Origin: Euryarchaeota archaeon UBA170
Lineage (GTDB): Archaea > Thermoplasmatota > Poseidoniia > Poseidoniales > Thalassarchaeaceae
Assembly: GCA_002499345.1 (NCBI GenBank)
Contig: DALF01000050.1
Location: 14,923 to 73,525 of the forward strand
Direction of reading: 5' to 3'
DNA length: 58,603 nt
A program made the translations under genes and the position numbers. The notes beneath the pieces were generated by a model. The model did not search any database. It saw only the letters and a program-made list of their open reading frames with translations, and was not told where the DNA came from. Positions 6,483-50,480 of the stretch are shown here, one piece after another. The number at the start of each line of letters is the position of its first letter. Positions within the stretch are counted from its first letter, which is position 1.

Positions 6483-9400
6483 TCATCTGTCTCTAAAATT
6501 GGCACCACTGTAGAACTTGTCCAGATACTCTTCACCATAGTAATGCCACTGTTCCATGGTCCATCCGGGAGGGAGCCCCCCAGGAGGAAGAGGAGGGGTC
6601 ATTGGAGGAGGAGGCGGAGGAGCGGTATTGTAAACGGGTTTTGGGAGAATTTCCACAGGAGGTGGAAGATTAATCGCAGAGAGGGCTTCTTGATGATAAA
6701 TGGGGTTTCTCTTTGAGCTTCTCCTTGCGATAGAGTTGATGCCCCCTACCACGGCCACTAAAGCAATCAGAGCCACAACAGAAGCACTTGCTAGGAAAAT
6801 TGTGTCAGGAGATTCCTCGCCACTGTTATGCTGGTCATCGGGAGGCTGGCTTGAATCCACTCCTTGAGGAGCTACAGCATCGTACTTCATTTGCTCGGGC
6901 GTCCTTCTGTCGAAGCCGTTTTCATCCACTCCCCGGATGCTCAATGTGAAGTAATCCCCAGTACTGAGACCGCTTCCAGTGACTGGGAGAATGATGAAAG
7001 GACCCAGGTTGAATGAGGATCCAGCACTGTGGCAGATTCCTGTAATCTTGTTACAAACCGTCCAAGTCACCCTGATATCAGTCAGTGACTCATCGCCAAT
7101 GTTTGAGATTAACACGGTAGGAGTGTCCCCGATATCGAATGAGTCTATCTCTACCTCGAAGTTTTCATCCCAATCAAGCGGAATATCGTCGACAATCGTG
7201 TAACTCAGAGAGATGGTGGAAGATTCCCCATGGCGGTCTTCGGCAGTTATCTTAATACTGTCAGAACCTTCCTCTGGCCAGTTAGCAGTCATGATTCCGG
7301 TTATTGGGTCGTAAAACACTGCGCCTGGATAGTAGCTAGTTGCTGTTATCCAAATTTCTTCGTCTGGATCATCAATATCTGTAATCCTACTGATTAGATC
7401 TACTTCAGTTGTGACACCCATCTTCAAGGTGACATCTTCTATACCAGAAGTATCGATAATAGGGGCATCGTTGACATTCAAGACGTGGAAAGTTACTGTG
7501 GTGTCTGACGACTTATCGCCATCACTAGCCCTCAGAGAAATCTCCACGAGACCGTTTGAGTCGTCATCTAGTGAGTTGACGTTGATGGTTTGACCAAAAA
7601 TACTGGCTTCAACTAGGTTTTCATCGGATATCGACAATATTTCCACTGACACCCCTGAGACTGGGACCACTTGGCCATTATTGTTAGTATCAGATAGATA
7701 GTCAGTGAGGCCGAGACTAGCGGATCCTCCCTCGTGGAATGACTTGATGGGTATGGGTGACCACCTAGGTGCACCATTTTCTACGACATTGAACATCATC
7801 AAGCCAGTATTGGACTCATCCCCGTCATGGACACTGATTAGCATACCTTGTGGAATTGGTGAGCCTTGGCTATCGAGTAGTAGACTATCGAATCTTACCT
7901 CTATCTCTAATGAAGATGGGTTCCATCCTATGAACTCAGGCTCAGTGCTTGAGATTTCTAAATTGAAAAGAGAGGTTTCCGCGTCTGATACCAGTCCAAC
8001 TACTGAAACCATCTCACTGGTCTGCACCTTAACAGTAGGAACTCCGGCATAGGTCATGTCGCTATTGCCGAGTACTCTTGGCAGGGAGTTCTGTAGATAG
8101 AAGGCATTCTCGGAAGTTAGCCATTCACTTGTCTGCCCAGATGAGTCAGTCCATTTGATCCTTAGGTCATAGTACCCCATCGCTGCGTCTAGAGGAGTGT
8201 CGATGTCTAATGAATGCCTTGCATTATCACCTGATCCTATGATGGCGTGATTGGCAATCCAATCATTGCTCCACATGGAGGATGATGAGGGAGAGTATTC
8301 CAAAGATGGTTGCATAGTATATATGTCATCAACTAGATCATTGGAAATCGCTGAAACCTCGAAGCCAACTGCTGATCCCCTATCGACTGAAGTTGAGCCA
8401 CTAGAAGAAGGCTGGCTGGCGGTCGGTGGCATGTCATGCAAAGCGACCGCGTCTGAGATGTCGTTGGAAGGTCCCCGATCTCCGTCATTTCCTGAAATCT
8501 TTGCCCTAATTGTCGTTGATCCGAGAGCCGTTATATCGATATCAGTGGTATCCAAGAAAGCATTGTATGTGTGGAAACCGCCTACGGCGAAATCCCCTAT
8601 TGTGAAGGTGGATATCTCAATCTCGGATAGGCCGTCCATCCAGTTGATAGATAGTTGCCCACCCCCCTCATATTCCTCTACTCCATTGTTGGAAACTCTG
8701 CAAGAAATATCTAGAACATCTCCCGAAACGAATCCAGAGTTGCCATTTCTGTTTGAGATGATTATCTCTTCCACGCCTATGTCGACTAGAGGAATCATGC
8801 CCAAGTCTACAGCAGATAGGAAGTTGTTGTAGGTGGTGTGAGGACCATCCATCAATGCGAAAACGGGCCAGAAATTTTCGAACTGGGAGTACCCCCCACC
8901 AGCCCTTACTGCGCTCAGTGGGACTTGCCATGAGCTCTCTACGGGAGAATTAGGAGTTAGTGTGAGTTGTTCGAAGCCATTGTTGTGACTGGCCAGCATC
9001 CATTCCCTGAAACTGTGGTGGGGCTTTACGCCGTTGTCGTAAGCGTCGGGGCTGACCTTCTCAGTAATCGCCGCATACAGGAAAACTGATACTGAACTGA
9101 GGGAGCCCGTGTACATAGAATTTACAGTTACTGTTACTTGATTTGTGGATTGATCATATTGGACCTCCAACTGCATGGCGTAGTTTGACGTATCTGAATC
9201 CATACAACCTCCATTTGAATAGTCAGAGTCGTAATAATTTGTCCCCCCTGCGCCAATTTTGTAACATGTGCCTGATTGCTGGTCTGCAAAGGAAAATTTG
9301 GGAATTCCACCACCACCAGCTGAGACGTGGCTTCGGCGATTGATTGGACTATCATCAGGATAGCCGCTAGAGCTAGATTCGAAAAACGAAACAAAAGTGA

Positions 9401-9662
9401 AATCCTCGGGATTAGAGGACTTGAGGTTATCCAAAGATGGAGAGGCGCTACTCATGCATGGCCCACACCAGTGTGCGCCGACATATTCGCCAAATACGGG
9501 GTGTCCGGGGCTTGTTGCGAACATCTTTGCTTCAATCTGCTCTAATTCTTGCCTCTCTTGTATGGATTCTTCTACTGCACAAAAAGAGACAAATGAGGAT
9601 AGCAACATCAGTGAAACTAGAGTAAAGGAAGAAACGACCGCATAGGGAGTAGTATGCCTCAT
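6483..9662 (-). CDS. large type-I surface protein: thioredoxin-like WCGPC module, CARDB-like and cadherin-like domains, C-terminal TM, proline-rich cytoplasmic tail
   Basis: N-terminal signal/anchor (SSFTLVSLMLLSSFVSFCAV). VFGEYVGAHWCGPCMSS has a thioredoxin-type CxxC (nt 9456-9470). CARDB-like DISCRVSNNGVEEYEGGG. Cadherin-like hallmark FHVLNVNDAPIID. TM IFLASASVVALIALVAVVGGI. An 84-aa tail contains PPPPPPMTPPLPPGGLPPGW. Confidence 0.8.
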   Translation of the reverse strand: MRHTTPYAVVSSFTLVSLMLLSSFVSFCAVEESIQERQELEQIEAKMFATSPGHPVFGEYVGAHWCGPCMSSASPSLDNLKSSNPEDFTFVSFFESSSSGYPDDSPINRRSHVSAGGGGIPKFSFADQQSGTCYKIGAGGTNYYDSDYSNGGCMDSDTSNYAMQLEVQYDQSTNQVTVTVNSMYTGSLSSVSVFLYAAITEKVSPDAYDNGVKPHHSFREWMLASHNNGFEQLTLTPNSPVESSWQVPLSAVRAGGGYSQFENFWPVFALMDGPHTTYNNFLSAVDLGMIPLVDIGVEEIIISNRNGNSGFVSGDVLDISCRVSNNGVEEYEGGGQLSINWMDGLSEIEISTFTIGDFAVGGFHTYNAFLDTTDIDITALGSTTIRAKISGNDGDRGPSNDISDAVALHDMPPTASQPSSSGSTSVDRGSAVGFEVSAISNDLVDDIYTMQPSLEYSPSSSSMWSNDWIANHAIIGSGDNARHSLDIDTPLDAAMGYYDLRIKWTDSSGQTSEWLTSENAFYLQNSLPRVLGNSDMTYAGVPTVKVQTSEMVSVVGLVSDAETSLFNLEISSTEPEFIGWNPSSLEIEVRFDSLLLDSQGSPIPQGMLISVHDGDESNTGLMMFNVVENGAPRWSPIPIKSFHEGGSASLGLTDYLSDTNNNGQVVPVSGVSVEILSISDENLVEASIFGQTINVNSLDDDSNGLVEISLRASDGDKSSDTTVTFHVLNVNDAPIIDTSGIEDVTLKMGVTTEVDLISRITDIDDPDEEIWITATSYYPGAVFYDPITGIMTANWPEEGSDSIKITAEDRHGESSTISLSYTIVDDIPLDWDENFEVEIDSFDIGDTPTVLISNIGDESLTDIRVTWTVCNKITGICHSAGSSFNLGPFIILPVTGSGLSTGDYFTLSIRGVDENGFDRRTPEQMKYDAVAPQGVDSSQPPDDQHNSGEESPDTIFLASASVVALIALVAVVGGINSIARRSSKRNPIYHQEALSAINLPPPVEILPKPVYNTAPPPPPPMTPPLPPGGLPPGWTMEQWHYYGEEYLDKFYSGANFRDR

Positions 9663-13511: not shown

Positions 13512-14312
13512 ATGGGAAAAAATCTCTTAGAAAGTGATTTCCCCTTTGCCGAGGGGATTCTTAATGGAAAGACGGCACTAGTATGTGGGGCCTCCAAGGG
13601 AATCGGAAGAGCCACAGCATTGGTTCTTGCTAGAGCGGGATGTAGGATAATTGCGTGTGCTAGATCGGTAGAAGATCTTGAGTCACTTATGATAGAAATG
13701 CATGGATCGGGGCATGAATATCTGGCATTAGATATGGAGAGCCTGGAGTCAATTTCTTCTTCAGTGTCAGATTTAGGCACTGTGGACATACTTGTGAATA
13801 ATTCTGGAGGCCCCCCCGGAGGGCCATTACTCGGCAATACAGTTCAGGATTTTGAGGGCCCGTTCACGAGGCATCTGCACGCCTCACACATCCTGACAAA
13901 AGAACTGGTACCTGGGATGGAAAAATCAGGAAGCGGCAGAATTGTGAATATTATCTCCACATCAGTTAGGGAGCCTATCGACAACATAGGACTTTCAAAC
14001 ACCTTGAGAGGTGCCATGGCATCATGGTCAAAGTCGCTCTCTCGGGAATTGCCAGCTTGTATAACAATTAACAATATTCTTCCGGGATTCACAGACACCG
14101 ATAGGCTAGGCTCTCTCGCTAATTCTATCTCATCGAAGACTGGCATTGGGATCGAAGAAGTTCAGAAAAACTGGATTAATAGTGTTCCAATTGAGAGGTT
14201 GATTGACCCTCTAGAAACTGCAATTGCGGTTGCATGGCTGTGCCTTCCATCTAGTGGGGCCGTGAGAGGCGTAAGTCTTGCTGTAGATGGCGGCAGAATG
14301 CGTTCCATATGA
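13512..14312 (+). CDS. short-chain dehydrogenase/reductase (SDR)
   Basis: TALVCGASKGIGRATALVLARAG (TGxxxGxG-type NAD(P) site), NNSGG, NNILPGFTDT. Confidence 0.85.
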   Translation: MGKNLLESDFPFAEGILNGKTALVCGASKGIGRATALVLARAGCRIIACARSVEDLESLMIEMHGSGHEYLALDMESLESISSSVSDLGTVDILVNNSGGPPGGPLLGNTVQDFEGPFTRHLHASHILTKELVPGMEKSGSGRIVNIISTSVREPIDNIGLSNTLRGAMASWSKSLSRELPACITINNILPGFTDTDRLGSLANSISSKTGIGIEEVQKNWINSVPIERLIDPLETAIAVAWLCLPSSGAVRGVSLAVDGGRMRSI

Positions 14313-14320
14313 GGGATAAA

Positions 14321-15562
14321 ATGGAGTTCGATATTTTCTTCTCCATTTCACAGACGCCAGACACCTCTGGCTTTATCCCCAGTGAGAGTGAGATGTTCTC
14401 CAACTTCCTAAATCAGGCCGAACATGCCGATAAGCTTGGATTTGGAATTGGCTGGATAGCTCAGGCTCACCTATCAACAGAGATACAGAAAAGAAATACA
14501 AATCCAGTAGTTCCACATTACCCGGGAGAGGTGGGACTTTGTACTGACTTCTTCCAGATCGCTCAGAAGGTTCTCTCTCGGACGGAAACGATGGAAGTCG
14601 GTAGCGCGGTAATGAGTATCCTAGCTTCTGGCGGCCCTATTGCTCAAGCAGAGAGAGTTGGGTCATTCCTATCCTTACACGGACTTGATTCCGATGAGTC
14701 AAGGAGGTTGCATATTGGATTCAGCGCAGGGAGATTTGAGTTCATGGCCAGGCCGTACGGAATAGTTCCTCGAGACCCCGTGGAGGAAGCGGCGTGGCCC
14801 GCCCTTAGAGGAAGAGTTTTCGCAGAGGCATCTGAGATATTCCTCCGATTACTCAGAGGTGATGTTTTATCTAGCGATATGATAGGGAAGACCGTATTGA
14901 CCAGAGCCAACTTCAGGAGCGATGAAGATTGGTCCAGAGTCCAACAGGAGGCCGCATCATACCATAGTTTGAGTGATTTGCCCGATTCAATTGAAATCAG
15001 AAATAGATATAATTTCGAGGAAATAAAGATAATTCCTCAAGATTGGAACAGAGATCTTCTGAATTTAGTTCTTGGAAGTCACGACCCTATTTTACAGAAA
15101 GAGGTAAATCAGTGGATTCCTGTTCAGGTATTCAACCTCTCAATAACCCCACCAAGAATAATAGAGGAGACGCATGAGAGAATGAGGGAGTCTTACCACA
15201 GGGATGGCGGCCCATGGGAGCGGTCAATGATGCCTCGTACTATCATGATTTTCATTAACGAAGAGGATGGCTTGAGTTCAGAAGAGAGGAGCTCTGAGGC
15301 TAAAATTGAGGCTAAATCTGCTCTTTCTACATATTGGAGCGCCTTGGAAGGGACCATTGACCCTTCAAAAGTTGACAGGGCCGTAGACAACGCAGTAATA
15401 GGTAACGCTGAGGAAGTGGCACAACAAATTATTGAGAGGTTTGATTCCAATGATCGTTTGATGTGCTGGTTTGATTTCTTCAACCATGACAGTGAGAGAG
15501 TGATGAGGAACATGACTGCATTCATGACCAAGGTAGTACCCCGAATCAATGGAGGGACGTAG
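14321..15562 (+). CDS. luciferase-like (LLM-class) flavin-dependent monooxygenase/oxidoreductase
   Basis: MEFDIFFSISQ ... AEHADKLGFGIGWIAQAHLS ... VGSAVMSILASGGPIAQAERV ... IGFSAGRF resembles the LuxA/SsuD-type TIM barrel. An alternative ATG at 14309 overlaps the SDR stop (ATGA). ATG 14321 is preceded by GAGGG. Confidence 0.65.
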   Translation: MEFDIFFSISQTPDTSGFIPSESEMFSNFLNQAEHADKLGFGIGWIAQAHLSTEIQKRNTNPVVPHYPGEVGLCTDFFQIAQKVLSRTETMEVGSAVMSILASGGPIAQAERVGSFLSLHGLDSDESRRLHIGFSAGRFEFMARPYGIVPRDPVEEAAWPALRGRVFAEASEIFLRLLRGDVLSSDMIGKTVLTRANFRSDEDWSRVQQEAASYHSLSDLPDSIEIRNRYNFEEIKIIPQDWNRDLLNLVLGSHDPILQKEVNQWIPVQVFNLSITPPRIIEETHERMRESYHRDGGPWERSMMPRTIMIFINEEDGLSSEERSSEAKIEAKSALSTYWSALEGTIDPSKVDRAVDNAVIGNAEEVAQQIIERFDSNDRLMCWFDFFNHDSERVMRNMTAFMTKVVPRINGGT

Positions 15563-16735
15563 ATGGGAGGCCGGGATAACGTTCCTTCTTCAGTATCTCC
15601 TGGAAGGCCTGGATCGTCTCTTTATCCCTCTAATCCACTGGGCGAAAGGCACGAGGGAATAGCCACAGGAAGAGATGTTGAATGGGAGCCTTTGGTAGAT
15701 TTTCGAAGGATGGACATCTCGGAGAATACAATACATGGCGCAATAGCTTGGGCCCATGGGAATGAAATTATACATTCATTCGGAGGAAACGTTCTGGTGT
15801 ACGGCAGATCAATGATGAAGCCATTCACAATGAAAGTCTTCAGCGAGGCCCTCTCTGATGCTGGCCTAAGTACGGAACAAATGGCGATTTCATGCTCATC
15901 TCATAATGGGGATACTGAACACGTTGCTGCGGCTCAGTCCATGCTGAGTGAATCAGAATGGGGGCTGATGCAATGCCCATTAGATGTCCCATTAATCCAG
16001 TTTGGAAGGCAGGTAAGGAGACCTAGGAGATGGTTTCATACATGCTCTGGAGAACATGCCGCGATGCTCAAAGGAATGAGACTGATGGGAATTAGTAGAG
16101 CTGGTTACACTCTCCCTAGCTCCGGCTGGTTTCCATTGTACCTAGATGTACTCAGAAGGATGATGGGCAAGCCTGATTGGGAGCCTTTGAGAGTAGCAAA
16201 GGATGGGTGTGGCCTTCCTACAGTATCGAATACTGTAGATGAGTTGGCAGTAATGATGGCAGGACTGGCTTTTGAGAAAGACGATGACTGGATTTGGAAT
16301 GCGATGACTGAGCACCCAGATCTGGTAGGGGGCTTCAACAGACTGGATTCAACCTGCCTGAAGGCGGGCGGGGGTAAAATCTTGGCTAAGGAGGGAGCGG
16401 ATGGTTTACTAGGCCTTTCCGTGGATCATCCCGACTGGCCAAATGGCCTGGGGATAGTAATCAAAATAGCCCATGGTTGGAATAGTCAGGCTACTTGGTA
16501 TGTCGCTAGGGCCGTCTTGGGAGTATTGGGCGTCGAACTAAGAAACCCATATCCTTTGCATCGTCAGAAGGCGTTTATTGTTCCAGGAATTGTTCCCGAT
16601 AGTATGAGAGAAGCTCTTGAAGAGGTTGTCACTTGGGACGAATGGGACCCCGATAGAGACAGATTCTCGATGGACTGGAGAGATTATTCTGACGGAGCGA
16701 CTCGAGAAAGCCCCTTTGCTAATGAGGGGTCCTGA
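15563..16735 (+). CDS. asparaginase-II (PF06089-like, beta-lactamase-fold) family protein
   Basis: Motifs GRSMMKPFT, CSSHNGDTEH and CSGEHAAMLKG parallel the remembered RSSAKPFQ / SHSG / CSGKHAGML signature. The ATG directly abuts the preceding TAG. Confidence 0.6.
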   Translation: MGGRDNVPSSVSPGRPGSSLYPSNPLGERHEGIATGRDVEWEPLVDFRRMDISENTIHGAIAWAHGNEIIHSFGGNVLVYGRSMMKPFTMKVFSEALSDAGLSTEQMAISCSSHNGDTEHVAAAQSMLSESEWGLMQCPLDVPLIQFGRQVRRPRRWFHTCSGEHAAMLKGMRLMGISRAGYTLPSSGWFPLYLDVLRRMMGKPDWEPLRVAKDGCGLPTVSNTVDELAVMMAGLAFEKDDDWIWNAMTEHPDLVGGFNRLDSTCLKAGGGKILAKEGADGLLGLSVDHPDWPNGLGIVIKIAHGWNSQATWYVARAVLGVLGVELRNPYPLHRQKAFIVPGIVPDSMREALEEVVTWDEWDPDRDRFSMDWRDYSDGATRESPFANEGS

Positions 16736-18168
16736 TGAAAATACTGAACTATATCAAGGGTAAATTTAACGAGCCGATATCCTCAGAATGGATGGATAAT
16801 TTTTCACCTTCTACTGGGAAGGTTATCGGAAGTATTCCTCTATCGGGGGATGCTGATGTCATATCTGCAATCGCCGCCGCTAAGGGTGCTCTTCCGGAAT
16901 GGAGTAGTCTTGACCCGTCTGATAGGGCTCTTTGGCTGGATAAGATAGCTGACTGCCTGGAGGAGAAATTCGAGGAGATCGCACACTTAGAGAGCATGGA
17001 TACTGGGAAGCCCATATCTCTGGCCCGTTCGGTTGATGCAAGGAGATCGGTCTCAAACTTCAGATTCTTCTCAGAAATGATCAGAGATAGGGAAGAGGAG
17101 GTATTTGAGATGGAAGACGCCACTAATATAGTGAAGCTTAGAGCTGTCGGAGTTGGTGCTCTAATCACTCCTTGGAATCTCCCTCTGTACCTCCTTTCAT
17201 GGAAGGTTGCTCCGGCCATTGGCATGGGCAACACCGTAGTCTGTAAACCGAGTGAGCTGACCCCACTAACTGCTGACCTCCTGATGAGGGTAATAGACGA
17301 GGTGGGCCTACCGCCTGGCGTGGTCAATCTCGTTCATGGAAATGGTAATGCAGGGTCAGTACTTACTGGGAATCCAGATGTAGACCTTGTCTCATTCACC
17401 GGAGGGACATCTACTGGTTCAAAGGTAGCAATGTCTGCATCTCCTCAATTCAAGAAGTTGAGTTTGGAACTGGGTGGCAAGAATTCGAGTATAGTATTCT
17501 CAGATTGTAATCTGGAAGAAACAGTCAAAGGAGTTACTAGAGCCGCATTTCTGAATCAGGGGCAGGTTTGTTTGTGCGGCTCTAGGATACTCGTGGAAGA
17601 ATCGATCTATGATCAATTCATGGATATGTTCGTAGAGTCCGTAGAGTCGATGGTAATTGGCGACCCGATGGATGAGGATACCGACCTAGGGGCCTTGATT
17701 TCCAAGCAACACTTGGAGAAGGTTGAGAGTTATGTATCACTAGCTCTGGAGGAGGGTGGACAAATAGTAACCGGAGGTAAGCCGTGCTTACCGAAAGAAT
17801 TGGAAGGTGGAAATTGGATGTCTCCCACAGTAGTGACTGGCCTGGGAACCGAATCGAGATGCTCGACTGAGGAGGTCTTCGGTCCATTTGTTACCGTGCA
17901 TAGGTTCAATTCCGAAGAAGACGCAATAAAAATTGCAAATAATACGAGATACGGGCTAGCTGGCAGTATTTGGACTGGCGATTTGGAACGGGGCAGAAGG
18001 GTGGCCGAGAGTATCCATACTGGGATGATTTGGGTAAATACTTGGCTACACAGGGATCTTCGGGTGCCTTTTGGGGGAATTAAAGATAGCGGAGTTGGAA
18101 GAGAAGGCGGCAAATGGAGCTTGGGATTCTTCTCAGAGCCCCTTAATGTATGCCTAAAGCACGATTGA
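16735..18168 (+). CDS. NAD(P)-dependent aldehyde dehydrogenase
   Basis: LITPWNLPL, ELGGKNSSIVF (catalytic Glu), GQVCLCGSR (catalytic Cys), EEVFGPF. The start overlaps the previous stop (TGATG). Confidence 0.9.
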   Translation: MKILNYIKGKFNEPISSEWMDNFSPSTGKVIGSIPLSGDADVISAIAAAKGALPEWSSLDPSDRALWLDKIADCLEEKFEEIAHLESMDTGKPISLARSVDARRSVSNFRFFSEMIRDREEEVFEMEDATNIVKLRAVGVGALITPWNLPLYLLSWKVAPAIGMGNTVVCKPSELTPLTADLLMRVIDEVGLPPGVVNLVHGNGNAGSVLTGNPDVDLVSFTGGTSTGSKVAMSASPQFKKLSLELGGKNSSIVFSDCNLEETVKGVTRAAFLNQGQVCLCGSRILVEESIYDQFMDMFVESVESMVIGDPMDEDTDLGALISKQHLEKVESYVSLALEEGGQIVTGGKPCLPKELEGGNWMSPTVVTGLGTESRCSTEEVFGPFVTVHRFNSEEDAIKIANNTRYGLAGSIWTGDLERGRRVAESIHTGMIWVNTWLHRDLRVPFGGIKDSGVGREGGKWSLGFFSEPLNVCLKHD

Positions 18169-19193
18169 TGCACAAGACTGTAAGAATGAGAGTGGGCGGG
18201 CCATTGATTAGAATGGCACCTGTTGGAATCATCGGAGTTGGCTCATACGTCCCGCCGCATGAAATGAGTAATGATGATTGGTCGGAAATCGTGGATACTA
18301 GTGACGAGTGGATTACTACCAAGACCGGTATGAAAAAAAGGAGGATTGCCGACCCCAGTACATGTACGTCTGACTTAGCCGTTGAGGCCTGCAGAGTGGC
18401 ATTAGAAAACTCTGGACTAACGGCCTCCGATATCGATTTGATAATACTGGCAACTTCTTCGCCAGATGTCCCTATGTCTTCGACGGCCGGGATAGTCCAG
18501 GATAAGCTAGGTTGCTCCGATTGTGTTGCTTTTGACATCAATGCGGTATGTGCTGGTTGGGTTCACGCACTGGATATAGGTTCTAGATTTGCAGGGACAG
18601 CAGGTTATGAAAATGTACTGGTTGTCGGATCCGAGGTATATTCGAGGATCCTGAATTGGAAAGATCGTTCGACTTGTGTACTGTTTGGGGATGGCGCGGG
18701 AGCTGTGGTACTTTCCCAAGTACCAGAGGGGAAGGGAATTATTGGATCGTGGATGATGAGCGATGGTTCTGGATCTAGTGTTATTGAGATTCCAGCAGGA
18801 GGGGTCAGAACTCCGATCCCCAGTGAGGGTTTCAAAGAGGGGATGCAATACTTTCACATGGATGGGAGGGCTGTTTGGGACTTTGCGATCGAAGCGTTTC
18901 CTCAAGCCGTGTTATCAGTTCTCGAAAGATATGGCAAAACTATAGATGAGGTTGACCTTATTCTACCTCATCAGGCTAACATAAATATCATTGAGAAGGG
19001 AATGGAAAAGCTAGGACTTCCCATGGACAGGGCGTTCACGAATCTCCATAAGTATGGAAATACAGCTGGAGCGAGTGTCCCTATTGCTATGCACGAGGCA
19101 TTCGAAGAAATGAAGATAGTAGAAGGGGATCTAGTCGTCACCGTTGCATTTGGTGGTGGCTTGGCATGGGGCGCTAATCTCATTCAGTTCTAG
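18168..19193 (+). CDS. fabH: 3-oxoacyl-ACP/CoA synthase III (FabH-like KAS III)
   Basis: GSYVPPHEMSNDDWSEIVDTSDEWITTKTGMKKRR, NAVCAGWVHAL (Cys), LPHQANINII (His), YGNTAGASVPIAM (Asn). The maximal ORF starts at 18150. ATG 18168 forms TGATG with the ALDH stop. ATG 18213 is also possible. Confidence 0.85.
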   Translation: MHKTVRMRVGGPLIRMAPVGIIGVGSYVPPHEMSNDDWSEIVDTSDEWITTKTGMKKRRIADPSTCTSDLAVEACRVALENSGLTASDIDLIILATSSPDVPMSSTAGIVQDKLGCSDCVAFDINAVCAGWVHALDIGSRFAGTAGYENVLVVGSEVYSRILNWKDRSTCVLFGDGAGAVVLSQVPEGKGIIGSWMMSDGSGSSVIEIPAGGVRTPIPSEGFKEGMQYFHMDGRAVWDFAIEAFPQAVLSVLERYGKTIDEVDLILPHQANINIIEKGMEKLGLPMDRAFTNLHKYGNTAGASVPIAMHEAFEEMKIVEGDLVVTVAFGGGLAWGANLIQF

Positions 19194-22100
19194 TTGACAG
19201 GGCCCCAAGACCCAGTGGACTGGTTGAATGAGAGGATTGATCCATCTGGATTCTGACAGTACACATTACCCGTATTGTCAACCCAAACAAGTTGCCCGTT
19301 TTCGTTCATCTTAGCGTCACTGGGAGGCTTTGGTTCGGTTCTTCCTCCATCTGAAGGGAGAGATGTAGAGCTGGGGACGGAGACATTTGAGTATATTTTG
19401 GACTCATTAGTTACCTCGCCGGAATCATTGGATTGAGAGAATAATGACTGCTCTTTTTCTCCTCTTCTCCTGACAAAGAGTAAACCTCCGAGAGAACCGA
19501 TCACTACCACAGAAATCAGTGCTACTAAGATTAGCATTGTTGTTGATTCCTCGGCTACCTGCCTATCAGGGTCGTTTGGGAATGCATCTCCATTGTCTCC
19601 TACGCCATCTAGGTCTGAGTCCAACCACTCAAATGGATTCAGGGGGAAGTCATCTACGCCATCCATGAATCCGTCATCATCAGAATCCGGATCGGTAGCA
19701 CTGGTATTTCTCGCATCTTCCTCCATATCAGATGAGCCGTCATTGTCATCATCAGAATCTGAGTTGTCCCCTACGCCATCCAAATCATTATCATTCCACT
19801 CAGTCGAATCTAGTGGGAGGGCATCTAGTAAATCAGGGAATCCATCATTGTCATCGTCATCATCCTCTTCAGAATCCTTACAGCCGTCTGAATCGTTGTC
19901 GGTATCCACTGTGCTGGTCCACCCTACTAGACCCAGTGTACACCCGTCGACGATATCGTTAATTCCATCACCGTCATCATCCAAATCCACTTCATCATGG
20001 AGTCTATCTCCATCTGAGTCTAGAAGGCAATCATCGACCGATGTAGAGGATTCTTGCAGGGTAATCATATCCTCTGGACAAGATTCTGTAGCTATACTTC
20101 GTGCCGATGTTACAAACTGATCGAATGGGGCGGGGGCCTGTTGGGCCTGCCCCTTTTCGGATACGAAGAATCCTGGGTCTGCATCTATGCATGTAGATTG
20201 GCCCGAGGATGGCTGGTAAGTTCCCTGCAGACATTCTTCTTGTGACACTGATGCTTCAGACGAAGTGAAGAACCCTGGGTTCGTATCTAGGCAAGTGGTT
20301 TGTCCAGGGGATGGCTGATAAGTTCCAGACAAACATGGATTCTGCTCATTGGAGCCTTCAGAGAGTACGTAGTGACCTGGTTCGGATGAAATACAGGAAA
20401 TCTGCCTAGTCTGATTCTGATAGCTCCCCGGTGAACACGGAGTCTGCCCGGAAGAACCGGGAGAGGAGACATAGTGTCCCTCATCTGATTCTAGGCAATC
20501 TGACTGGCTTGTTGCTGATTCGTCGGGATTGTAAGTTCCCACGGGACATGGATTTTGAGAAGTGGACATTTCGGAGTCTACATAGAAGCCCGGATCAGCA
20601 TTGATACAATTTTGCTGGCCCATTGAAGGTTGATACTCTCCTGCCTGACATTCTTGTTGGCCATCTTCTCCTGATAATTCGACAAAATGCCCAGGATCTG
20701 CCTGCAAGCATGATACTTGCCCGGCATAAGGCTGATACTCGCCCGGAGAACATAGATTCTGGTAAGACGCTCCGAGAATTGCTGAGTAGTTGCCCGGATC
20801 AGCTTCGAGACAAGCCGCGGAGCTATTTGCCCTGGATACTGGATTATAGGTCCCAAGGGAGCAGGGAATCTGGGTAGAAGATGCGTTGCTATCTGTGTAG
20901 TACCCGGGACTGGCCTCTAGACATTCAGAGAGTCCGACCTGATTGGCCCAATAACCAGGAGGGCAGGGAGAAGCGAATATGGCCCCCCCTGAGCCGACAA
21001 AGTAGCCTGGAGGAGCCGGAGTGCAAGAAACCTGTCCAGACATAGATTGGTAGAACCCAGGAGTGCAGGGGATCTGGTAAGATGAGGCATTGGCGGGGAC
21101 CGCATGCCCCGGGTCCGCATCAAGGCAAGATTGGGAACTATTGGCCGCGCCCGCTGGATTGTATGTGCCAGCGAGGCAGGGAGTCTGTGTGGTGGACCCT
21201 GCCTGTTCTACGTAGTGTCCAGGATCTGCGTCTATACAATCTGTTGCCGCGAAAGAAGGCTGGAAAGATCCGGGCTGGCAAGGTGTTTGCGAGGAAGACG
21301 CATTCGATGGGACATGGTTTCCAGGGGTCGCCAGCAGGCACAGTGTCTGATTCGAAGACGGCTGATAGAAACCGGGATCACAGGCTATTTGTGAGGTGCT
21401 TGCAGTCCCAGGCACGACATACCCCGGAGATGAAGATAGGCAGGATTGCTGAGCAGACAGTGGCTGATAATATCCCGGATCGCAGGGGATTTGGGATGTC
21501 GAGCTATAGTTAGGGACGTAATATCCGGAAGAGGCATCAATACACGAGGTGGAGCCATTAGAAGGCTGATACTCCCCGGGTGAGCAGGCGGCCTGACTGA
21601 CGGACCCGGATGAGAATACATAGAATCCAGGATCTGCTACCAGACAGCTAATTTGGGCAAATGAGGGCTGATATTTCCCAGGGGAACATTGAGTCTGTGA
21701 AGTAGCTCCTGGATTGGCGACAAAATTACCCGGTAAAGCAGGAGTCTGGGATGTGGCGCCGGATTGAGATACATAGTATCCTTGTTGAGCGCTTAAACAC
21801 GACGATTGTCCTGTTAGAGGTTGATAATTGCCAGGAGTGCATAGCTCCTCAGATGTCGCGCCGACACTAGAGACATATCTGCCAGTAGAAGCAGAATCGC
21901 ATGAACCGCTACCAGTTTTTGCCTGATACGTTCCTAGCTGACACTGGAAGAATCCGACTTGAATCTCTGCGTCTATTGACTCTGATTGATTACCTATAGT
22001 GGAGTCGTCGATGATTGACTTCAGAGTAAGTGTAAATGTATAATCCCCGGAGCTTGAATTATTGGGAGTAACTGAAATCAGTAATATCGAAGAACTATTG

Positions 22101-24418
22101 AAGGGCGTTCCAATCGTACTTACGCTTGCTACATCCCCTCCTAGTGTCGAGTTATTTGACGTAGAAATAAAGGACATGGCCAACGAAGAATTGTAGTAGT
22201 ACAAGCTAACACTAAAGTCCCCATTGAGATTTGAATTGGTGAGATTGACTGAAACAGTAGTATCTCTTGGGACGAATATAGAGAATAAATCACCGGAGTC
22301 ATTGGACCATGAATAGTTCCCAATTTCCCCGTCATAAGTAGCACTTCTAGACTGAAGTGGAGTGGGATGTGAATCATCCGCATCCCCATATTGATTGTTC
22401 GTATAATTTCCCACTGGAGAGGGAGTACAAGATGACTGTGCGAGATCATTCTGGTAGAACCCTGGATCGCAATGTTGCTGAACAGAAGATGATTCTTCAT
22501 CGACGAAATACCCGCTCGATGCCTCATAGCACAGAGATTGCCCCTCCTCAGGTTGATAATTTCCTGTTGTGCAACTTTCATGGAAAAGGGAGCCTTGCAA
22601 AGAGAAATGGCCAGTGGATGAGTTCTGACAGGATAATCGTCCCCATTGGCCGTCTGGACAGCTTACCCATCTGGCTGGATTATCTGGAAAATCATCCATT
22701 GATGAATTGAACCCATCACCATCGGTATCGTCACCGATATCCAAATCCAGAACGTTACGGGTTCCATCTCCATCGAGGTCCTGCTCAGAGTATCCAATTG
22801 ATTCTCCAAGAGTGGAGTTATTGAAGTCCATCAGATATGGTACGAGGATATCATTTGAGGTTCCATCAAATTCTCCAGATTGACCGCCCCAACAGAACAG
22901 AGAGTAGCTCTGATTTATCGCACATGTGGATTCGATACCAGTTACTAATGCTATGGCCGGAGATGGCATAAGGACGTACGAGGGAACGTTTCCATCCGTT
23001 CCTGAGCAATTGCTGGAACTGGAGCTACAAGTTCCATCTCCCCACTGCCCATGGGTATTAACTCCCCAGCAATTGATCGACCCATTGTCCATCAATGCAC
23101 ATGTGTGCCAGTTAGTACCATCAATATCGGATGCTGTCCTGCCAGTTGGTAACTGAATATCGGTTGATGAACCTGTTACAGAGCCACCCTGAGTTGAGAC
23201 TGTGTAGGCCTTGCCCCAACAACTGATCGACCCATTATCAAAAATAGCACATACGCTATATCCGGGAGTTGCCAATGAGGAAGCCCTAAGGCCCGTTGAG
23301 TGATTGGCCAAGACTGGTGAGTTCCTACTAGTGGTGGTGCCATCACCTAGATTTCCAAAACCATTGAATCCCCAGCACTTGATTTCACCGGTATCTAGAA
23401 TTGCACAGGTGAAATCATTTCCCGCTGAAACAGAAATCGCTGTTCTGTTTACCCCTAGGTCAACTGGAACGGGGGAGTTTCTGTTAACGTTTGAGCTATC
23501 CCCTAGTTGGCCGTGATTATTCCTTCCCCAGCAATTTAGAGATGCATCGTCCAGAATTGCGCAATTGTGATAGTTTCCGTTTGAAATAGCAACTGGCACA
23601 CGAGTTCCGAAGTCCACCGTCCCATTGCTTAGGGAATTAGAGCCGACTCCGAGTTGTCCGTAGGTATTTGACCCACTGCATCTAAGTGTCCTATTGTACA
23701 GTATTGCACAGTCCCCTGCAATTGAAATCACTTCATCGTTGATGACTTCTGAACCTCCAGTACTGTTGAAACTAACTGTGCTCCCATTGGATAGGACTAG
23801 TGTAGGAGATCCAGTATCTAAGTCCAGAACTGAGTGGCTGAAGACTGATCCCCTATCTGTGCCTGGTTGATTGAAACCAAGATTGTTTATCTGAGCTGGC
23901 GAGGGGGATGATGACGCTTCGCTAAGTGTCCATGAGTCTGTCCCCCATGAGTCTCCAGAAGTGCCCCCATTTCCATTAACTAGGTTTACGGCCAGATAGA
24001 ATACCACATCTCCAGAACCCGTTATGGGGGCTGTCCAGTCAACCGACCATGCCCTAGAATTGGAGTTTGAATGAGTGACCTCGCCTGAGGATAACCGAGC
24101 ATTCGGACCTGGATTAGAGAATACTCCCAGATTAGAATCCAGATTGAATCCACCGCTGGTACCACTCGGTCCACCAGAGGCGCTTACTGAAAGAGAATAT
24201 GTAATTCCCGGAGTATATCCTGATGAAGGAGTTCCTGAAAGTGCAGGGGTGACTGTTGGAGAGGTTGAGGAATGGCAAAATCCAGCTCCACATCCATCGG
24301 TAGAACCGGTTCTCCCGGAGCTGTTGGCAAATGCTGTTTCTGGCACAGCCATAAGCAAAAGCATCAGAAAGGTTCCCACAATAATTACTCTAGTTTTCAT
24401 TCCACTCTCTCCTGCCAT
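19190..24418 (-). CDS. giant (1742 aa) type-I surface protein: N-terminal C-x4-CH module, RCC1-like propeller, PPC-like domain, about 20 Cys-repeat units, TSP3-like acidic Ca-binding repeats, TM, cytoplasmic tail
   Basis: Signal peptide VIIVGTFLMLLLMAVPETAFA. RCC1-like blades (YGQLGVGS, CWGRNNHGQLGDSS, CWGFNGFGNLGDGT, CWGVNTHGQWGDGT). Repeats C.PG.YQP...Q.SC...PG.YV. DxDxDG runs (DSDGDRLHDEVDLDDDGDGINDIVD). TM MLILVALISVVVIGSLGGLLFV. Confidence 0.85.
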   Translation of the reverse strand: MAGESGMKTRVIIVGTFLMLLLMAVPETAFANSSGRTGSTDGCGAGFCHSSTSPTVTPALSGTPSSGYTPGITYSLSVSASGGPSGTSGGFNLDSNLGVFSNPGPNARLSSGEVTHSNSNSRAWSVDWTAPITGSGDVVFYLAVNLVNGNGGTSGDSWGTDSWTLSEASSSPSPAQINNLGFNQPGTDRGSVFSHSVLDLDTGSPTLVLSNGSTVSFNSTGGSEVINDEVISIAGDCAILYNRTLRCSGSNTYGQLGVGSNSLSNGTVDFGTRVPVAISNGNYHNCAILDDASLNCWGRNNHGQLGDSSNVNRNSPVPVDLGVNRTAISVSAGNDFTCAILDTGEIKCWGFNGFGNLGDGTTTSRNSPVLANHSTGLRASSLATPGYSVCAIFDNGSISCWGKAYTVSTQGGSVTGSSTDIQLPTGRTASDIDGTNWHTCALMDNGSINCWGVNTHGQWGDGTCSSSSSNCSGTDGNVPSYVLMPSPAIALVTGIESTCAINQSYSLFCWGGQSGEFDGTSNDILVPYLMDFNNSTLGESIGYSEQDLDGDGTRNVLDLDIGDDTDGDGFNSSMDDFPDNPARWVSCPDGQWGRLSCQNSSTGHFSLQGSLFHESCTTGNYQPEEGQSLCYEASSGYFVDEESSSVQQHCDPGFYQNDLAQSSCTPSPVGNYTNNQYGDADDSHPTPLQSRSATYDGEIGNYSWSNDSGDLFSIFVPRDTTVSVNLTNSNLNGDFSVSLYYYNSSLAMSFISTSNNSTLGGDVASVSTIGTPFNSSSILLISVTPNNSSSGDYTFTLTLKSIIDDSTIGNQSESIDAEIQVGFFQCQLGTYQAKTGSGSCDSASTGRYVSSVGATSEELCTPGNYQPLTGQSSCLSAQQGYYVSQSGATSQTPALPGNFVANPGATSQTQCSPGKYQPSFAQISCLVADPGFYVFSSGSVSQAACSPGEYQPSNGSTSCIDASSGYYVPNYSSTSQIPCDPGYYQPLSAQQSCLSSSPGYVVPGTASTSQIACDPGFYQPSSNQTLCLLATPGNHVPSNASSSQTPCQPGSFQPSFAATDCIDADPGHYVEQAGSTTQTPCLAGTYNPAGAANSSQSCLDADPGHAVPANASSYQIPCTPGFYQSMSGQVSCTPAPPGYFVGSGGAIFASPCPPGYWANQVGLSECLEASPGYYTDSNASSTQIPCSLGTYNPVSRANSSAACLEADPGNYSAILGASYQNLCSPGEYQPYAGQVSCLQADPGHFVELSGEDGQQECQAGEYQPSMGQQNCINADPGFYVDSEMSTSQNPCPVGTYNPDESATSQSDCLESDEGHYVSSPGSSGQTPCSPGSYQNQTRQISCISSEPGHYVLSEGSNEQNPCLSGTYQPSPGQTTCLDTNPGFFTSSEASVSQEECLQGTYQPSSGQSTCIDADPGFFVSEKGQAQQAPAPFDQFVTSARSIATESCPEDMITLQESSTSVDDCLLDSDGDRLHDEVDLDDDGDGINDIVDGCTLGLVGWTSTVDTDNDSDGCKDSEEDDDDDNDGFPDLLDALPLDSTEWNDNDLDGVGDNSDSDDDNDGSSDMEEDARNTSATDPDSDDDGFMDGVDDFPLNPFEWLDSDLDGVGDNGDAFPNDPDRQVAEESTTMLILVALISVVVIGSLGGLLFVRRRGEKEQSLFSQSNDSGEVTNESKIYSNVSVPSSTSLPSDGGRTEPKPPSDAKMNENGQLVWVDNTGNVYCQNPDGSILSFNQSTGSWGPVN
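20144..21946 (-). repeat. in-frame tandem array of about 18 units of roughly 32-33 codons (Cys-repeat, GCC2/GCC3-like) inside the giant surface-protein gene
   Basis: Protein residues about 825-1425 repeat the pattern C-x-(P/A/L/V)-G-x-(Y/F)-(Q/N)-P-x4-5-(S/D)-C-x3-(D/S)-PG-x-(Y/F/H)-V-x6-9-Q-x-x. Examples: CSPGEYQPSNGSTSCIDASSGYYV, CDPGFYQPSSNQTLCLLATPGNHV, CLQGTYQPSSGQSTCIDADPGFFV. The units have diverged at nucleotide level. Confidence 0.8.
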
Positions 24419-26356: not shown

Positions 26357-27634
26357 TCACCGCTTCGACTGTTTCCTTCGTCCGCCTCTATCTCTACTAG
26401 AGCCACTAGGGGATGACTCCTCGACTACTATCTTCCGACCTTTAATTTCTGAACCATTCATGGCCTTGATAGCTGCCTTTGCATCATCTTTAGAGGGGAA
26501 AGTGACAAATGCGAATCCCTTAGACTTTCCAGAGTCTCTATCCTTGGCGATGTGTATGGAGTCGATTTTTCCATGCTCCGAGAATGCTTTGGATAGTTCT
26601 TCCTCCGATATTTCGTATGGGAGCCTACCAACAAATAGCTTGGATCCCATTTTCTCCTCGAGCTTCCCCCTCATGGCAGATATTGTCTCCCTCTCTTTGG
26701 ATAGCTCTTCTTTAGTGGCATTTCCACCCTTGACCTTGTCCATACAGTCTCTACATCTTATTGGCTTGCCGGGAGTTGGTTTGAATGGCACCTTTGTTTT
26801 AACCCCGCACATCGTACAAACTGCTTCGTGCATGTCCCTTCTAGGCCTACTCTGGCCCCCTCTTCCACCACCGCGGCTAGAAGACCTCATGGATGCCACC
26901 CTAGGCGGGATATCGTGATTTGCACCTCTTCGGAAGTCAGCTAGAGGAGAAAGGTATGGCCGGGCTCCATCATGACCTAGTTTCGCTTCTGCCTCGGGAG
27001 ACCATCTTTCTCCGGATCTGTTCAGTTTGTGTAGACCGAAGCCAGTTTCGTGGCCATGGCCAAAACCATCTGAGAGAACTCGATAGGCTGTATAGTCACA
27101 TCTTGAGCATTCTACATTGAAATCGATTTTCTTATCCGATACGTCCAGCATTACTCCACAGGCGGGGCAAGATGCAGATAATACTCCTAAGGATATGTCG
27201 CCCTTTGTTGAGGCTTTAAGGATAGGATCATCCTTGACTATTCTAGCTCTGACAATATCTCGCATCCTCATAGCATCACCAGGGGACGGAATGAATCTGT
27301 CAACGACTTCAGAGACATGTATATCAGCAAATAATTGAAGGGCCGGGAGGCTCCTGTGCCCTCCTTGCTTGCTCTCGACGTGTAGGATTCTAATCTCGGC
27401 GACGTTCTCGTTCAGTCTCGTTACCTGTCCGATCACTACATCATCAACAGAAGGAGAGTTTATGGGTGGCCTAGATGACTCTACGGAGATATTTCCATCC
27501 TTCTCTACAAGAGTTCCGGGGAGCGTGGCTATGCATCTTCCGTTCTTCTCAAAAATACCTTCTCCAACAGAGGATTCTGATGGAATAGTTACTGTGGAAC
27601 CGGGTGTAACTTGATCACCAACTACGGCAGACAT
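26357..27634 (-). CDS. csl4: exosome cap subunit Csl4 fused to RGG box, CxxC-x17-CxxC zinc knuckle and RRM domain
   Basis: The Csl4-like N-domain, S1 domain and Zn ribbon are supported by VIGQVTRLNENVAEIRILHVE ... CPACG ... CSRCDY. These are followed by SRGGGRGGQSRPRR, then CTMCGVKTKVPFKPTPGKPIRCRDC. A canonical RRM follows (RNP2 LFVGRL, RNP1 KGFAFVTF). The ORF-track start 27664 is TTG; ATG at 27634. Confidence 0.8.
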   Translation of the reverse strand: MSAVVGDQVTPGSTVTIPSESSVGEGIFEKNGRCIATLPGTLVEKDGNISVESSRPPINSPSVDDVVIGQVTRLNENVAEIRILHVESKQGGHRSLPALQLFADIHVSEVVDRFIPSPGDAMRMRDIVRARIVKDDPILKASTKGDISLGVLSASCPACGVMLDVSDKKIDFNVECSRCDYTAYRVLSDGFGHGHETGFGLHKLNRSGERWSPEAEAKLGHDGARPYLSPLADFRRGANHDIPPRVASMRSSSRGGGRGGQSRPRRDMHEAVCTMCGVKTKVPFKPTPGKPIRCRDCMDKVKGGNATKEELSKERETISAMRGKLEEKMGSKLFVGRLPYEISEEELSKAFSEHGKIDSIHIAKDRDSGKSKGFAFVTFPSKDDAKAAIKAMNGSEIKGRKIVVEESSPSGSSRDRGGRRKQSKR

Positions 27635-27677
27635 TGACCGGGCGACCAGCCGTTCCCCTATCAACGGTACGGAGGAA

Positions 27678-33323: not shown

Positions 33324-33467
33324 TCATTCTTCGGAATCGGAGGAAAAAATCTTCAGTTGGATACTTAATTCCGCTATTCTTGACCGTAAGTGGTTTACGT
33401 AGTATGCGAGTATGAAAGATAGTATTGTGTAGGCGACTATCATTTCAGAGGTTCCTGTCAAATTCAT
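33324..33467 (-). CDS. ccmD: small single-TM protein, CcmD-like (heme exporter protein D candidate)
   Basis: Not in the ORF track (47 aa). Hand translation: MNLTGTSEMIVAYTILSFILAYYVNHLRSRIAELSIQLKIFSSDSEE. Its ATG overlaps the ccmC stop (ATGA at 33464-33467). One TM followed by a basic segment, in the position expected for ccmD. Confidence 0.45.
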   Translation of the reverse strand: MNLTGTSEMIVAYTILSFILAYYVNHLRSRIAELSIQLKIFSSDSEE

Positions 33468-34186
33468 GCCCTCCCATCTAGTTCCACCTTGCTCTGTTCT
33501 AGTCTCTCTTCCATTCTGATAACCTCATTACTTAGTATTGCTAGGCCAATAAATAGAATCAGGAATGAAAGGAAACCCATCATTAGTACTGTCCTGATGG
33601 CAGGATCTAAGCCCGTCTCTTCTCCGTTGACTAAAACTATCCCGGGGTGCCTCTTCTGATACCATGTTGTGGCCAGTGCAGTTATTGGGACTAGTGCAAA
33701 TCCGAATAGTCCCACAGCGGCGAGAGTATCTCTGGTTTCTTGGCCATCTGGTTGAGACCTTCTAGATAAGACCAGGAATAGTGCCACGCCCGTCAGTAGA
33801 GCGAATGTATTGAGGCGGAGATCTCCCCAGTCCCACGGGACGCCCCATTCTGCAGACCCCCAAATCGGCCCTGATGTGATTACTCCGAGGCCGAAAAGTA
33901 ATCCGAGGTCTGAGCCGGTAGAAAACCACCTCCACCCCCAATCTGACCTGTCCTTATACCATGCCACTGCTCCGATGAACAACATACAGAATGCTAGGAA
34001 TGAAGACCATGCGAAGGGTACGTGCCAGTACAATATCCTGTATGCCTCAGGAGCGTTGAATGCTGTTGAGTCAACCATGGGAGCGTAGTATACTCCCATC
34101 AAAGCTGTGAAGGCCGCCCCCGTAATCCCCAGTGCCGTCAGGCCAATACCCACTCCCATTGATGAAGAAGGATTGGTGTCGGGCAT
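33464..34186 (-). CDS. ccmC: heme exporter protein C (cytochrome c maturation System I)
   Basis: Trp-rich WWD motif PIWGSAEWGVPWDWGDLRLNT (nt 33812-33862). Conserved His in WHVPFAW and in WYQKRHPG. About 6 TM helices. Confidence 0.85.
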   Translation of the reverse strand: MPDTNPSSSMGVGIGLTALGITGAAFTALMGVYYAPMVDSTAFNAPEAYRILYWHVPFAWSSFLAFCMLFIGAVAWYKDRSDWGWRWFSTGSDLGLLFGLGVITSGPIWGSAEWGVPWDWGDLRLNTFALLTGVALFLVLSRRSQPDGQETRDTLAAVGLFGFALVPITALATTWYQKRHPGIVLVNGEETGLDPAIRTVLMMGFLSFLILFIGLAILSNEVIRMEERLEQSKVELDGRA

Positions 34187-50422: not shown

Positions 50423-50480
50423 CGGTGTTAAAATACGTCTTAGAACCGATTCATTCTAGTTACAACACGGAGTGTTGAGT

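Follow-up and report, generated by a model that had tools for sequence, protein, structure and literature searches.

Among the known systems close in build to the protein described here are the fibrillar adhesins of bacteria (Monzon et al., PMC8286594; Monzon & Bateman, PMC9210967). Both have a signal peptide, distal globular domains that are candidates for binding, a long stalk of tandem repeats and an anchor, and in both the sequence evolves faster than that of neighbouring genes. The words archaea, ephrin and RCC1 are absent from the fibrillar-adhesin survey PMC9210967. Marine Group II (MGII) archaea are reported to be the most abundant planktonic archaea of ocean surface waters and have no cultured representatives; thrombospondin-type genes were taken as evidence of adhesion in the Poseidoniales by Rinke et al. 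(PMC6461757). Contact of these archaea with particles, algae or each other has so far been inferred only from gene lists. Here, a stretch of 58,603 nucleotides (nt) from Euryarchaeota archaeon UBA170 (contig DALF01000050.1, positions 14,923 to 73,525; “the window” in the following) was analysed, which carries a giant gene on its minus strand (19190..24418). The family of its product combines modules best known in eukaryotes, is built like a long-stalked adhesin and is conserved in Marine Group IIb archaea. Judged from sequence and structure models, we give about an even chance to the reading of the product as a surface glycoprotein with a type-I membrane anchor that resembles fibrillar adhesins and belongs to a Marine Group IIb archaeon (Thalassarchaeaceae).

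A tandem-repeat stalk, a surface anchor and a distal non-stalk domain, which make up the fibrillar-adhesin layout, were all found. Unlike the bacterial fibrillar adhesins, the window protein is archaeal and its stalk consists of Ephrin_rec_like units; a transmembrane helix plus a conserved cytoplasmic motif serves as anchor instead of a sortase-type signal, and the gene, instead of being variable, is a syntenic core gene whose length is fixed. The gene is a single open reading frame (ORF) of 1742 codons, and every feature that the original prediction had listed for the 1742-amino acid (aa) product is real and present. A second ATG is located six codons in (M7, nt 24400); since GGAGAG is found just upstream of it and the closest orthologues begin there (MKTR), M7 is probably the real start. 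The mature N-terminus after Sec-type export is a two-part globular head, a Reeler-like β-sandwich followed by an RCC1-type propeller. A short acidic unit, a stalk of 20 units broken after unit 3 by an inserted sandwich, an acidic block of ~150 aa, the transmembrane helix, a linker and a β-meander follow in this order.

An identical protein is already public on a 100-kb ENA/Tara contig, and orthologues have been named “choice-of-anchor V domain-containing protein” by NCBI. Public records of the relatives are labelled Candidatus Thalassarchaeum, Thalassarchaeaceae (MGIIb) or Poseidoniales. At E ≤ 1e-10, 863 database proteins match, and giant proteins combining RCC1 and Ephrin_rec_like are common in Poseidoniales. 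To call the combination undescribed was therefore overstated, although no paper describing the giant-protein family was found in the literature searched (MGII RCC1 proteins; archaeal GCC2/GCC3).

The signal peptide (residues 1-31; 24326..24418, minus strand like all parts of the gene) was read from the sequence as a hydrophobic stretch with A-F-A before N32. The following domain (residues 32-165; 23924..24325) matches NCBIfam NF041895 choice_anch_V at residues 22-162 with 92.9 bits (cutoff 42), which gives a name, choice-of-anchor V, to the C-x4-CH module (C43-x4-C48-H49) left unnamed before. An AlphaFold model of this domain built with 35 diverse sequences reached a predicted local distance difference test score (pLDDT) of 87.4 and a predicted template modelling score of 0.82. 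All of its top five PDB matches in Foldseek were the F-spondin Reeler domain (3COO, 2ZOT, 2ZOU; E 4.3e-6 to 2.2e-5, template modelling (TM) score 0.56-0.62, 21-22% identity), and the next matches, generic Ig domains, were ~20- to 100-fold weaker. The family profile searched against PDB sequences independently gave Spondin-1 as best match (E 1.3e-3), with the common motifs Y-x-P-G-x-x-Y and W-x-A-P-x-x-G-x-G. Because of this fold match and the independent profile match, the C-x4-CH module is assigned, by predicted fold and profile, to a prokaryotic Reeler-like domain related to the Reeler of F-spondin and reelin. Pfam Reeler (PF02014) is below its cutoff in this sequence (18.6 bits versus 21, E 0.0028) and reaches E 2.1e-4 in one orthologue. 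The domain is a further module better known from eukaryotes, in addition to those named in the original prediction.

As in F-spondin, reelin and invertebrate immune proteins, the domain is placed directly after the signal peptide. It differs in that the C-x(n)-C-H segment is outside the F-spondin alignment, which begins at profile position 29, and the prokaryotic family is catalogued apart, as NCBIfam choice-of-anchor V. Residues C43, C48-H49, G90-F91, H116, W124, W128, A130-P131 and D156 are 91-100% conserved in 144 diverse homologues, with C43, C48, H49, H116, W124, W128 and D156 near-invariant. An exhaustive HMMER search found the domain in 1471 representative clusters, always straight after the signal peptide, while a word-index search with the N-terminal domain yielded only fragments of the same family. 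The host proteins are about 120 to 1474 aa long and their C-termini, judged by eye, are varied (secretion-system sorting domains, PGF/PEF-type anchors, or a transmembrane helix with a basic tail). What the Reeler domain is in animals, this widespread module thus appears to be in prokaryotes. Animal (invertebrate) proteins with a Reeler domain bind to polysaccharides and cells of microbes (PMC12113285).

The second part of the head is the RCC1-type β-propeller (residues 183-520; 22859..23872), delineated by Pfam, cysteine map, orthologue conservation and PDB sequence matches. It bears out the RCC1 claim made earlier: RCC1 (PF00415) scored 70.9 bits (cutoff 21.7) and RCC1_2 (PF13540) 76.6 bits (cutoff 22), and the nearest solved relatives are UVR8 (E 1.4e-34), then HERC2 and RCC1 (down to 1e-14). 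WD40_RLD scored 117.5 bits, which is under its 150-bit cutoff. The propeller comprises six C-x9-C-[WS]-G hairpin blades and a conserved N-terminal segment (183-235), which may close it as a seventh blade. Sequence homology to the propellers of UVR8, the HERC2 RLD and RCC1 is clear; in contrast to them, the window propeller is extracellular, has a cysteine pair in each of its six blades and has no nucleotide-exchange context. Many bacteria, Bdellovibrionota and Chloroflexi among them, have comparable RCC1 arrays outside the cell.

The stalk is composed of two-cysteine units of ~34 aa. According to the cysteine map, three units precede the inserted sandwich (units 1-3, residues 586-675; 22394..22663) and 17 follow it (units 4-20 with a C1447/C1464 cap, residues 821-1464; 20027..21958), plus one unit without cysteines. 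Pfam Ephrin_rec_like (PF07699) matched in 18 stretches with E 1.6e-43 (146.7 bits, cutoff 23.1) and is matched by all 17 orthologues searched; the about 20 GCC2/GCC3 repeats noted earlier are therefore well founded. In a second AlphaFold model (residues 580-1742, 41 sequences, mean pLDDT 76.9) the stalk consists of regular hairpin pairs (pLDDT 80-92), in agreement with Pfam and the cysteine map. Its Foldseek matches are the Chlamydomonas mastigoneme protein Mst1 (E 1.9e-26), ELAPOR1 (~1e-9) and Eph receptors (~3e-5; EphA2/A4 and EphB2/B6 ectodomains). The equivalent tandem of Mst1 is Eph-receptor-like and forms a disulfide ladder (PMC10602792). Common to the cysteine-rich domains of these proteins and the window protein are tandem disulfide-stapled hairpin modules in an extended extracellular rod. 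The window protein differs in having only two cysteines per 34-aa unit, and the Ig array and polyproline helix of Mst1 are missing from it.

The stalk is interrupted by a β-sandwich (residues 686-816; 21971..22363), which was modelled with ten strands at a pLDDT of about 86-92 and carries 10 N-x-S/T sequons. The whole ectodomain has 38 such sequons and 0.4% lysine. Foldseek matched the sandwich to collagen-binding domains of ColG and to a PPC domain (4hpk, 1nqd, 2o8o, 1nqj, 5sv5) with a target-normalised TM score of 0.59-0.68 and E 2e-3 to 1e-2. The PPC-like sandwich of the original prediction stands as a predicted fold and fails as a sequence match, for Pfam PPC is not significant here (E 4.8, 8.6 bits) and is matched by none of the 17 orthologues; the call was kept because of the fold matches. 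ColG-type domains bind collagen. Compared with ColG and PPC, the sandwich shares the fold, has no significant sequence match and is located inside a stalk instead of at the C-terminus of a protease.

Acidic repeats of calcium type are found at both ends of the stalk. The first unit with the DxDxDG pattern (residues about 545-585; 22664..22786) was recognised by sequence and orthologue conservation, D547/D549/D551/G552 and D564/D566/G567/D568/G569 being invariant in 17 orthologues. The second block (residues 1466-1616; 19571..20023) has the motif LP.D..EW.D.D.DG.GDN.D.DDDNDG, and the columns of its D-x-D-x-D-G-x-x-D pattern, from 1467 to 1611, hold invariant Asp and Gly in 17 as well as in 41 sequences. 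TSP3 similarity is the weakest of the domain claims. Pfam TSP_3 and TSP3_bac gave no match at E ≤ 10 in the whole protein or in the excised acidic segments, and the best PDB sequence matches of the second block are BamM (E 0.036) and thrombospondin-2 (E 1.5-1.8), the latter not significant. The motif and the orthologues speak for it, since TSP3_bac (PF18884) is matched by 7 of 17 aligned orthologues (best E 1.3e-6). The assignment of the acidic blocks to TSP3-like calcium-type repeats is therefore a transfer by homology and not a demonstration. They share D-x-D-x-D-G-x-x-D-x-x-D motifs with the type-3 repeats of thrombospondin and COMP and with bacterial TSP3_bac. Differences from thrombospondin and COMP are the very few cysteines of the window block and the score of this sequence itself, which is below significance; its calcium sites are putative.

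The anchor had been predicted as a transmembrane helix with a 93-aa tail, and AlphaFold indeed models the helix at residues 1617-1647 (19478..19570), leaving a tail of ~95 aa. By conservation and model, this tail begins with a disordered, poorly conserved linker (residues 1648-1705; 19304..19477). Its last 37 residues form a C-terminal motif (G-Q-x-V-W ... N-x-D-G ... G-x-W; residues 1706-1742; 19193..19303), delineated by conservation, profile and model, which is as conserved as the head and is modelled as a four-strand β-meander (pLDDT about 80). Of the 120 best homologues, 44 carry the motif, both orthologue classes included, and a search for it in other protein families gave only fragments of the same family. 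Its profile matched the natural PQQ-type propeller protein 3hxj_A in the PDB (whole-sequence E 3.3e-10) as well as designer proteins built from a blade of that protein; in the alignments printed, which are those of the designer proteins, the single-blade matches are weak (i-Evalue about 7). A resemblance of the tail to one PQQ-type propeller blade is thus suggestive, not proven. A WW domain, considered from the spacing of the tryptophans, was rejected because the PDB profile search gave PQQ-type blades and no WW match.

Orthologues were compared with regard to position, length and selection. Full or nearly full-length matches are present in ~20 GTDB species representatives; those with an informative name belong to Poseidoniales or Thalassarchaeaceae, the others have generic archaeal labels. 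Five independent contigs (ENA, NCBI) carry the gene in the same slot, flanked by radical-SAM and Csl4-RRM genes on one side and by a cluster of FabH, aldehyde dehydrogenase and asparaginase II on the other, and each of these five loci has one syntenic orthologue. Protein identity is 85, 80, 67, 51 and about 40% (39%) versus ~95, 91, 81, 72 and 72% for the neighbours, i.e., divergence is about 2-3 times faster. For the two closest relatives, the whole-gene ratio of non-synonymous to synonymous substitution rates (dN/dS) is 0.119 and 0.089, about twice the median of the neighbours (mostly 0.025-0.09, one at 0.19). It is ≤ 0.31 in every domain and 0.00-0.04 in the tail motif.

Length is nearly fixed. 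Among 18 orthologues almost no indels were found, except that one sub-lineage is without exactly one 34-aa unit; many orthologues at 51% identity have exactly 1742 aa, and in two public protein clusters the full-length proteins have 1738-1744 aa. The stalk has 19-20 units within lineages and 16-20 between genera. Variable sites within clusters are evenly spread without an extracellular hot spot, the only peak being in the disordered cytoplasmic linker. Given synteny, near-fixed length, dN/dS and the even spread of variable sites, the expectation that the gene is strain-variable and under diversifying selection is not supported. Hypervariability is, from these sequence comparisons, refuted for this gene, which is a stable core gene instead; giant surface proteins rich in repeats are thus not always encoded by hypervariable island genes.

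Mean identity among orthologues is 0.73 in the Reeler-like domain, 0.72 in RCC1, 0.71 in the membrane-proximal acidic block and 0.70 in the tail motif; it is lower in the stalk (0.54-0.56) and the inserted sandwich (0.47). A conserved head, acidic block and tail together with a freer stalk is what would be expected if a spacer connects a functional tip to its base and anchor. Syntenic orthologues of ~1604 aa (loci L005, L006, L017 and L026; MGIIb-O1 type lineage) are without the Reeler-like domain and have about 16 stalk units instead of 20, plus a ~75-aa insertion of extra acidic repeats. They illustrate that modules have been gained or lost between genera while the locus stayed the same.

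Taken as a whole, the protein is best read as a fibrillar adhesin or surface-coat protein that is stiffened by calcium, has a disulfide ladder and bears a head of Reeler-like domain and propeller, whose ligand-binding role is putative. The stalk would keep the head tens of nanometres away from the cell, and the acidic blocks may take up seawater calcium and thereby stiffen both stalk ends. The head, perhaps also the inserted sandwich, could bind polysaccharides or proteins displayed by particles, phytoplankton or other cells, while the cytoplasmic motif would tether or cluster the molecule. For this reading speak the best structural matches of the stalk, which are extracellular rods or ectodomains, and three other large ORFs of the window, whose ends, a hydrophobic segment followed by a tail, are compatible with a type-I layout like that of the giant protein. 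An adhesive tip is suggested by analogy with Reeler-domain and collagen-binding-domain proteins. The original prediction of a particle-, prey- or host-binding adhesin was supported in its stalked surface architecture (signal peptide, head, stalk, anchor), with putative ligands, and on this analysis the adhesin role is plausible but unproven. Several points weigh against it. A syntenic core gene of near-fixed length under purifying selection suits a structural coat at least as well as an adhesin with fast turnover. The Reeler-like domain is dispensable for the core function, because the ~1604-aa lineage lacks it. Finally, the second acidic block was modelled at a pLDDT below 50 and the TSP3 Pfam models miss this sequence. 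The family is a concrete conserved target for questions of contact in Marine Group II, with a defined head, stalk, calcium-type modules and cytoplasmic motif.

The main rival to the adhesin, possible though rather unlikely, is a principal structural protein of a surface coat or canopy. It would be a fixed-height spacer akin to stalked anchors of surface layers (S-layers), with the heads forming the outer layer and the tails clustering the stalks. We rank it as main rival because core-gene behaviour and near-fixed length fit it almost as well. The single syntenic orthologue at each of the five housekeeping loci, the full-length matches in many species representatives, a repeat number that changes only between genera, strong purifying selection in every domain and the dense N-glycosylation sequons are all in line with a coat, and the conserved blade-like motif in the cytoplasm could oligomerise. 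A lattice-forming domain was, however, not recognised, and the protein is not the sole surface component, since other giant surface proteins coexist in the window.

A more speculative variant, which we consider improbable, concerns the tail. As a lone blade, unable to form a propeller by itself, it could join with neighbouring tails, or complete a partner protein, to give an intermolecular β-propeller, which would make the family a hitherto unrecognised archaeal organiser of the cell envelope. If true, several stalks of fixed length would be bundled into a defined surface structure and the protein would not be a simple adhesin. Other giant proteins of Marine Group II bear different Trp-rich hairpin tails. 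Homologues with such tails (P0031, P0051, P0054, P0059, P0071, P0089, P0107, P0249, P0260 and P0264; e.g., GYEW...W..W or QWTDE.G.TWR.MSDG...WW.GT.W) are giant or Reeler-like-domain surface proteins, several of them from Marine Group II. Several giant surface proteins of this group thus carry short Trp-rich β-hairpin tails on their cytoplasmic side, and small β-hairpin modules at the C-terminus may be general in surface proteins of Marine Group II.

Very doubtful is a reading of the Reeler-like head as a metal- or haem-binding redox module, presented on a stalk for extracellular electron transfer or metal acquisition. The animal Reeler-DOMON-cytochrome b561 ferric reductases offer a comparison. 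This reading draws on the conservation of C48-H49 (98%) and H116 (94%) in the 144 diverse homologues, on the C-x(n)-C-H region being the least confident part of the model (pLDDT 50-74), and on matches of the profile to cytochromes c-553 and c552 in the motif region, which are weak and not significant (E 0.59-1.3). Furthermore, a CcmC-like and CcmA-like gene pair is located ~9 kb away and is syntenic in relatives whose loci extend that far; its Ccm-like matches are, however, under the NCBIfam cutoffs. The spacing of the cysteines in 145 homologues speaks against haem: ~100 are without any C-x(2-6)-C-H (mostly C-x-C-H, the commonest spacing of the family, and a few with a single Cys), while C-x2-C-H occurs in 20 and C-x4-C-H in 19. 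The canonical haem attachment site C-x-x-C-H is thus not conserved across the choice-of-anchor V family, the window protein itself having C-x4-C-H, and C-x-C-H is, to our knowledge, not among the recognised attachment sites of haem c. The absence of the Reeler-like domain from the ~1604-aa orthologues also counts against this reading. From their conservation, the C-x(n)-C-H segment and the His of the Reeler-like head could form a cofactor site common to ~1500 prokaryotic surface-protein clusters. The gene pair consists of a CcmC-like membrane protein (33464-34186, minus strand; PF01578 38 bits, TIGR01191 66 bits, under cutoff) and an adjoining 477-aa protein (34225-35658, minus strand), the N-terminal half of which is a CcmA-like ABC ATPase. 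The pair is a hint that this archaeon exports haem or matures c-type cytochromes.

Equally doubtful is a transmembrane receptor, in which the ectodomain, on binding a ligand, would signal via the single transmembrane helix to the cytoplasmic motif, which would recruit a cytoplasmic partner. The tail motif fits such a role insofar as its identity and dN/dS are those of a part conserved like the head, it folds confidently in the model and is specific to this giant-protein family. Nevertheless, an enzymatic or known signalling domain is absent, no conserved neighbouring partner gene was found at the syntenic loci, and a disordered linker of ~58 residues separates the helix from the motif. An assembly chimera of repeats, one of the conditions that had been named as fatal to the original prediction, is excluded for practical purposes, because collinear full-length orthologues with almost no indels exist in five independent public assemblies and the exact protein is found on the 100-kb public contig.

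The window is archaeal and has genes for LonB, gyrase B and the Csl4 subunit of the exosome; Rfam and tRNA scans detected no RNA genes in it. A syntenic run of plus-strand genes kept in all relatives (13512-19193) abuts the 3' end of the giant gene. It encodes a short-chain dehydrogenase, a luciferase-like monooxygenase, a member of the asparaginase II family, an aldehyde dehydrogenase and a FabH-type ketosynthase, and the giant gene shares 4 nt with that of FabH, where their stop codons overlap. The gene at 26357-27664 (minus strand) encodes a fusion of the exosome cap protein Csl4 (NF034126, 99.5 bits) with a CxxC-x17-CxxC zinc ribbon and an RRM_1 domain of eukaryotic type (86.5 bits), which is kept in all five syntenic relatives examined.

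Further surface proteins are encoded in the window. A 1059-aa type-I surface protein (6483-9662, minus strand) has a WCGPC motif near its N-terminus and a Pro-rich cytoplasmic tail ending in LPPGWTMEQWHYYGEEYL; a thioredoxin domain suspected from WCGPC was not matched by Pfam. The near-identical tail motif LPEGWTEEQWRWYGEQWL ends a 667-aa protein with a Reeler-like N-terminal domain (P0146). On the plus strand, a rhomboid protease with a weak rhombosortase-like match (35736-36740; 40.8 bits versus a cutoff of 84) is directly followed by a 1608-aa surface protein with S8 subtilase and CARDB domains (36757-41583), which ends with a transmembrane helix and a cytoplasmic zinc-ribbon-like tail. A 1370-aa protein (50472-54584, plus strand) shows a flagellinolysin-like N-terminal match, which is under the cutoff, and several PKD domains, and its C-terminal part consists of a hydrophobic segment followed by an acidic tail.

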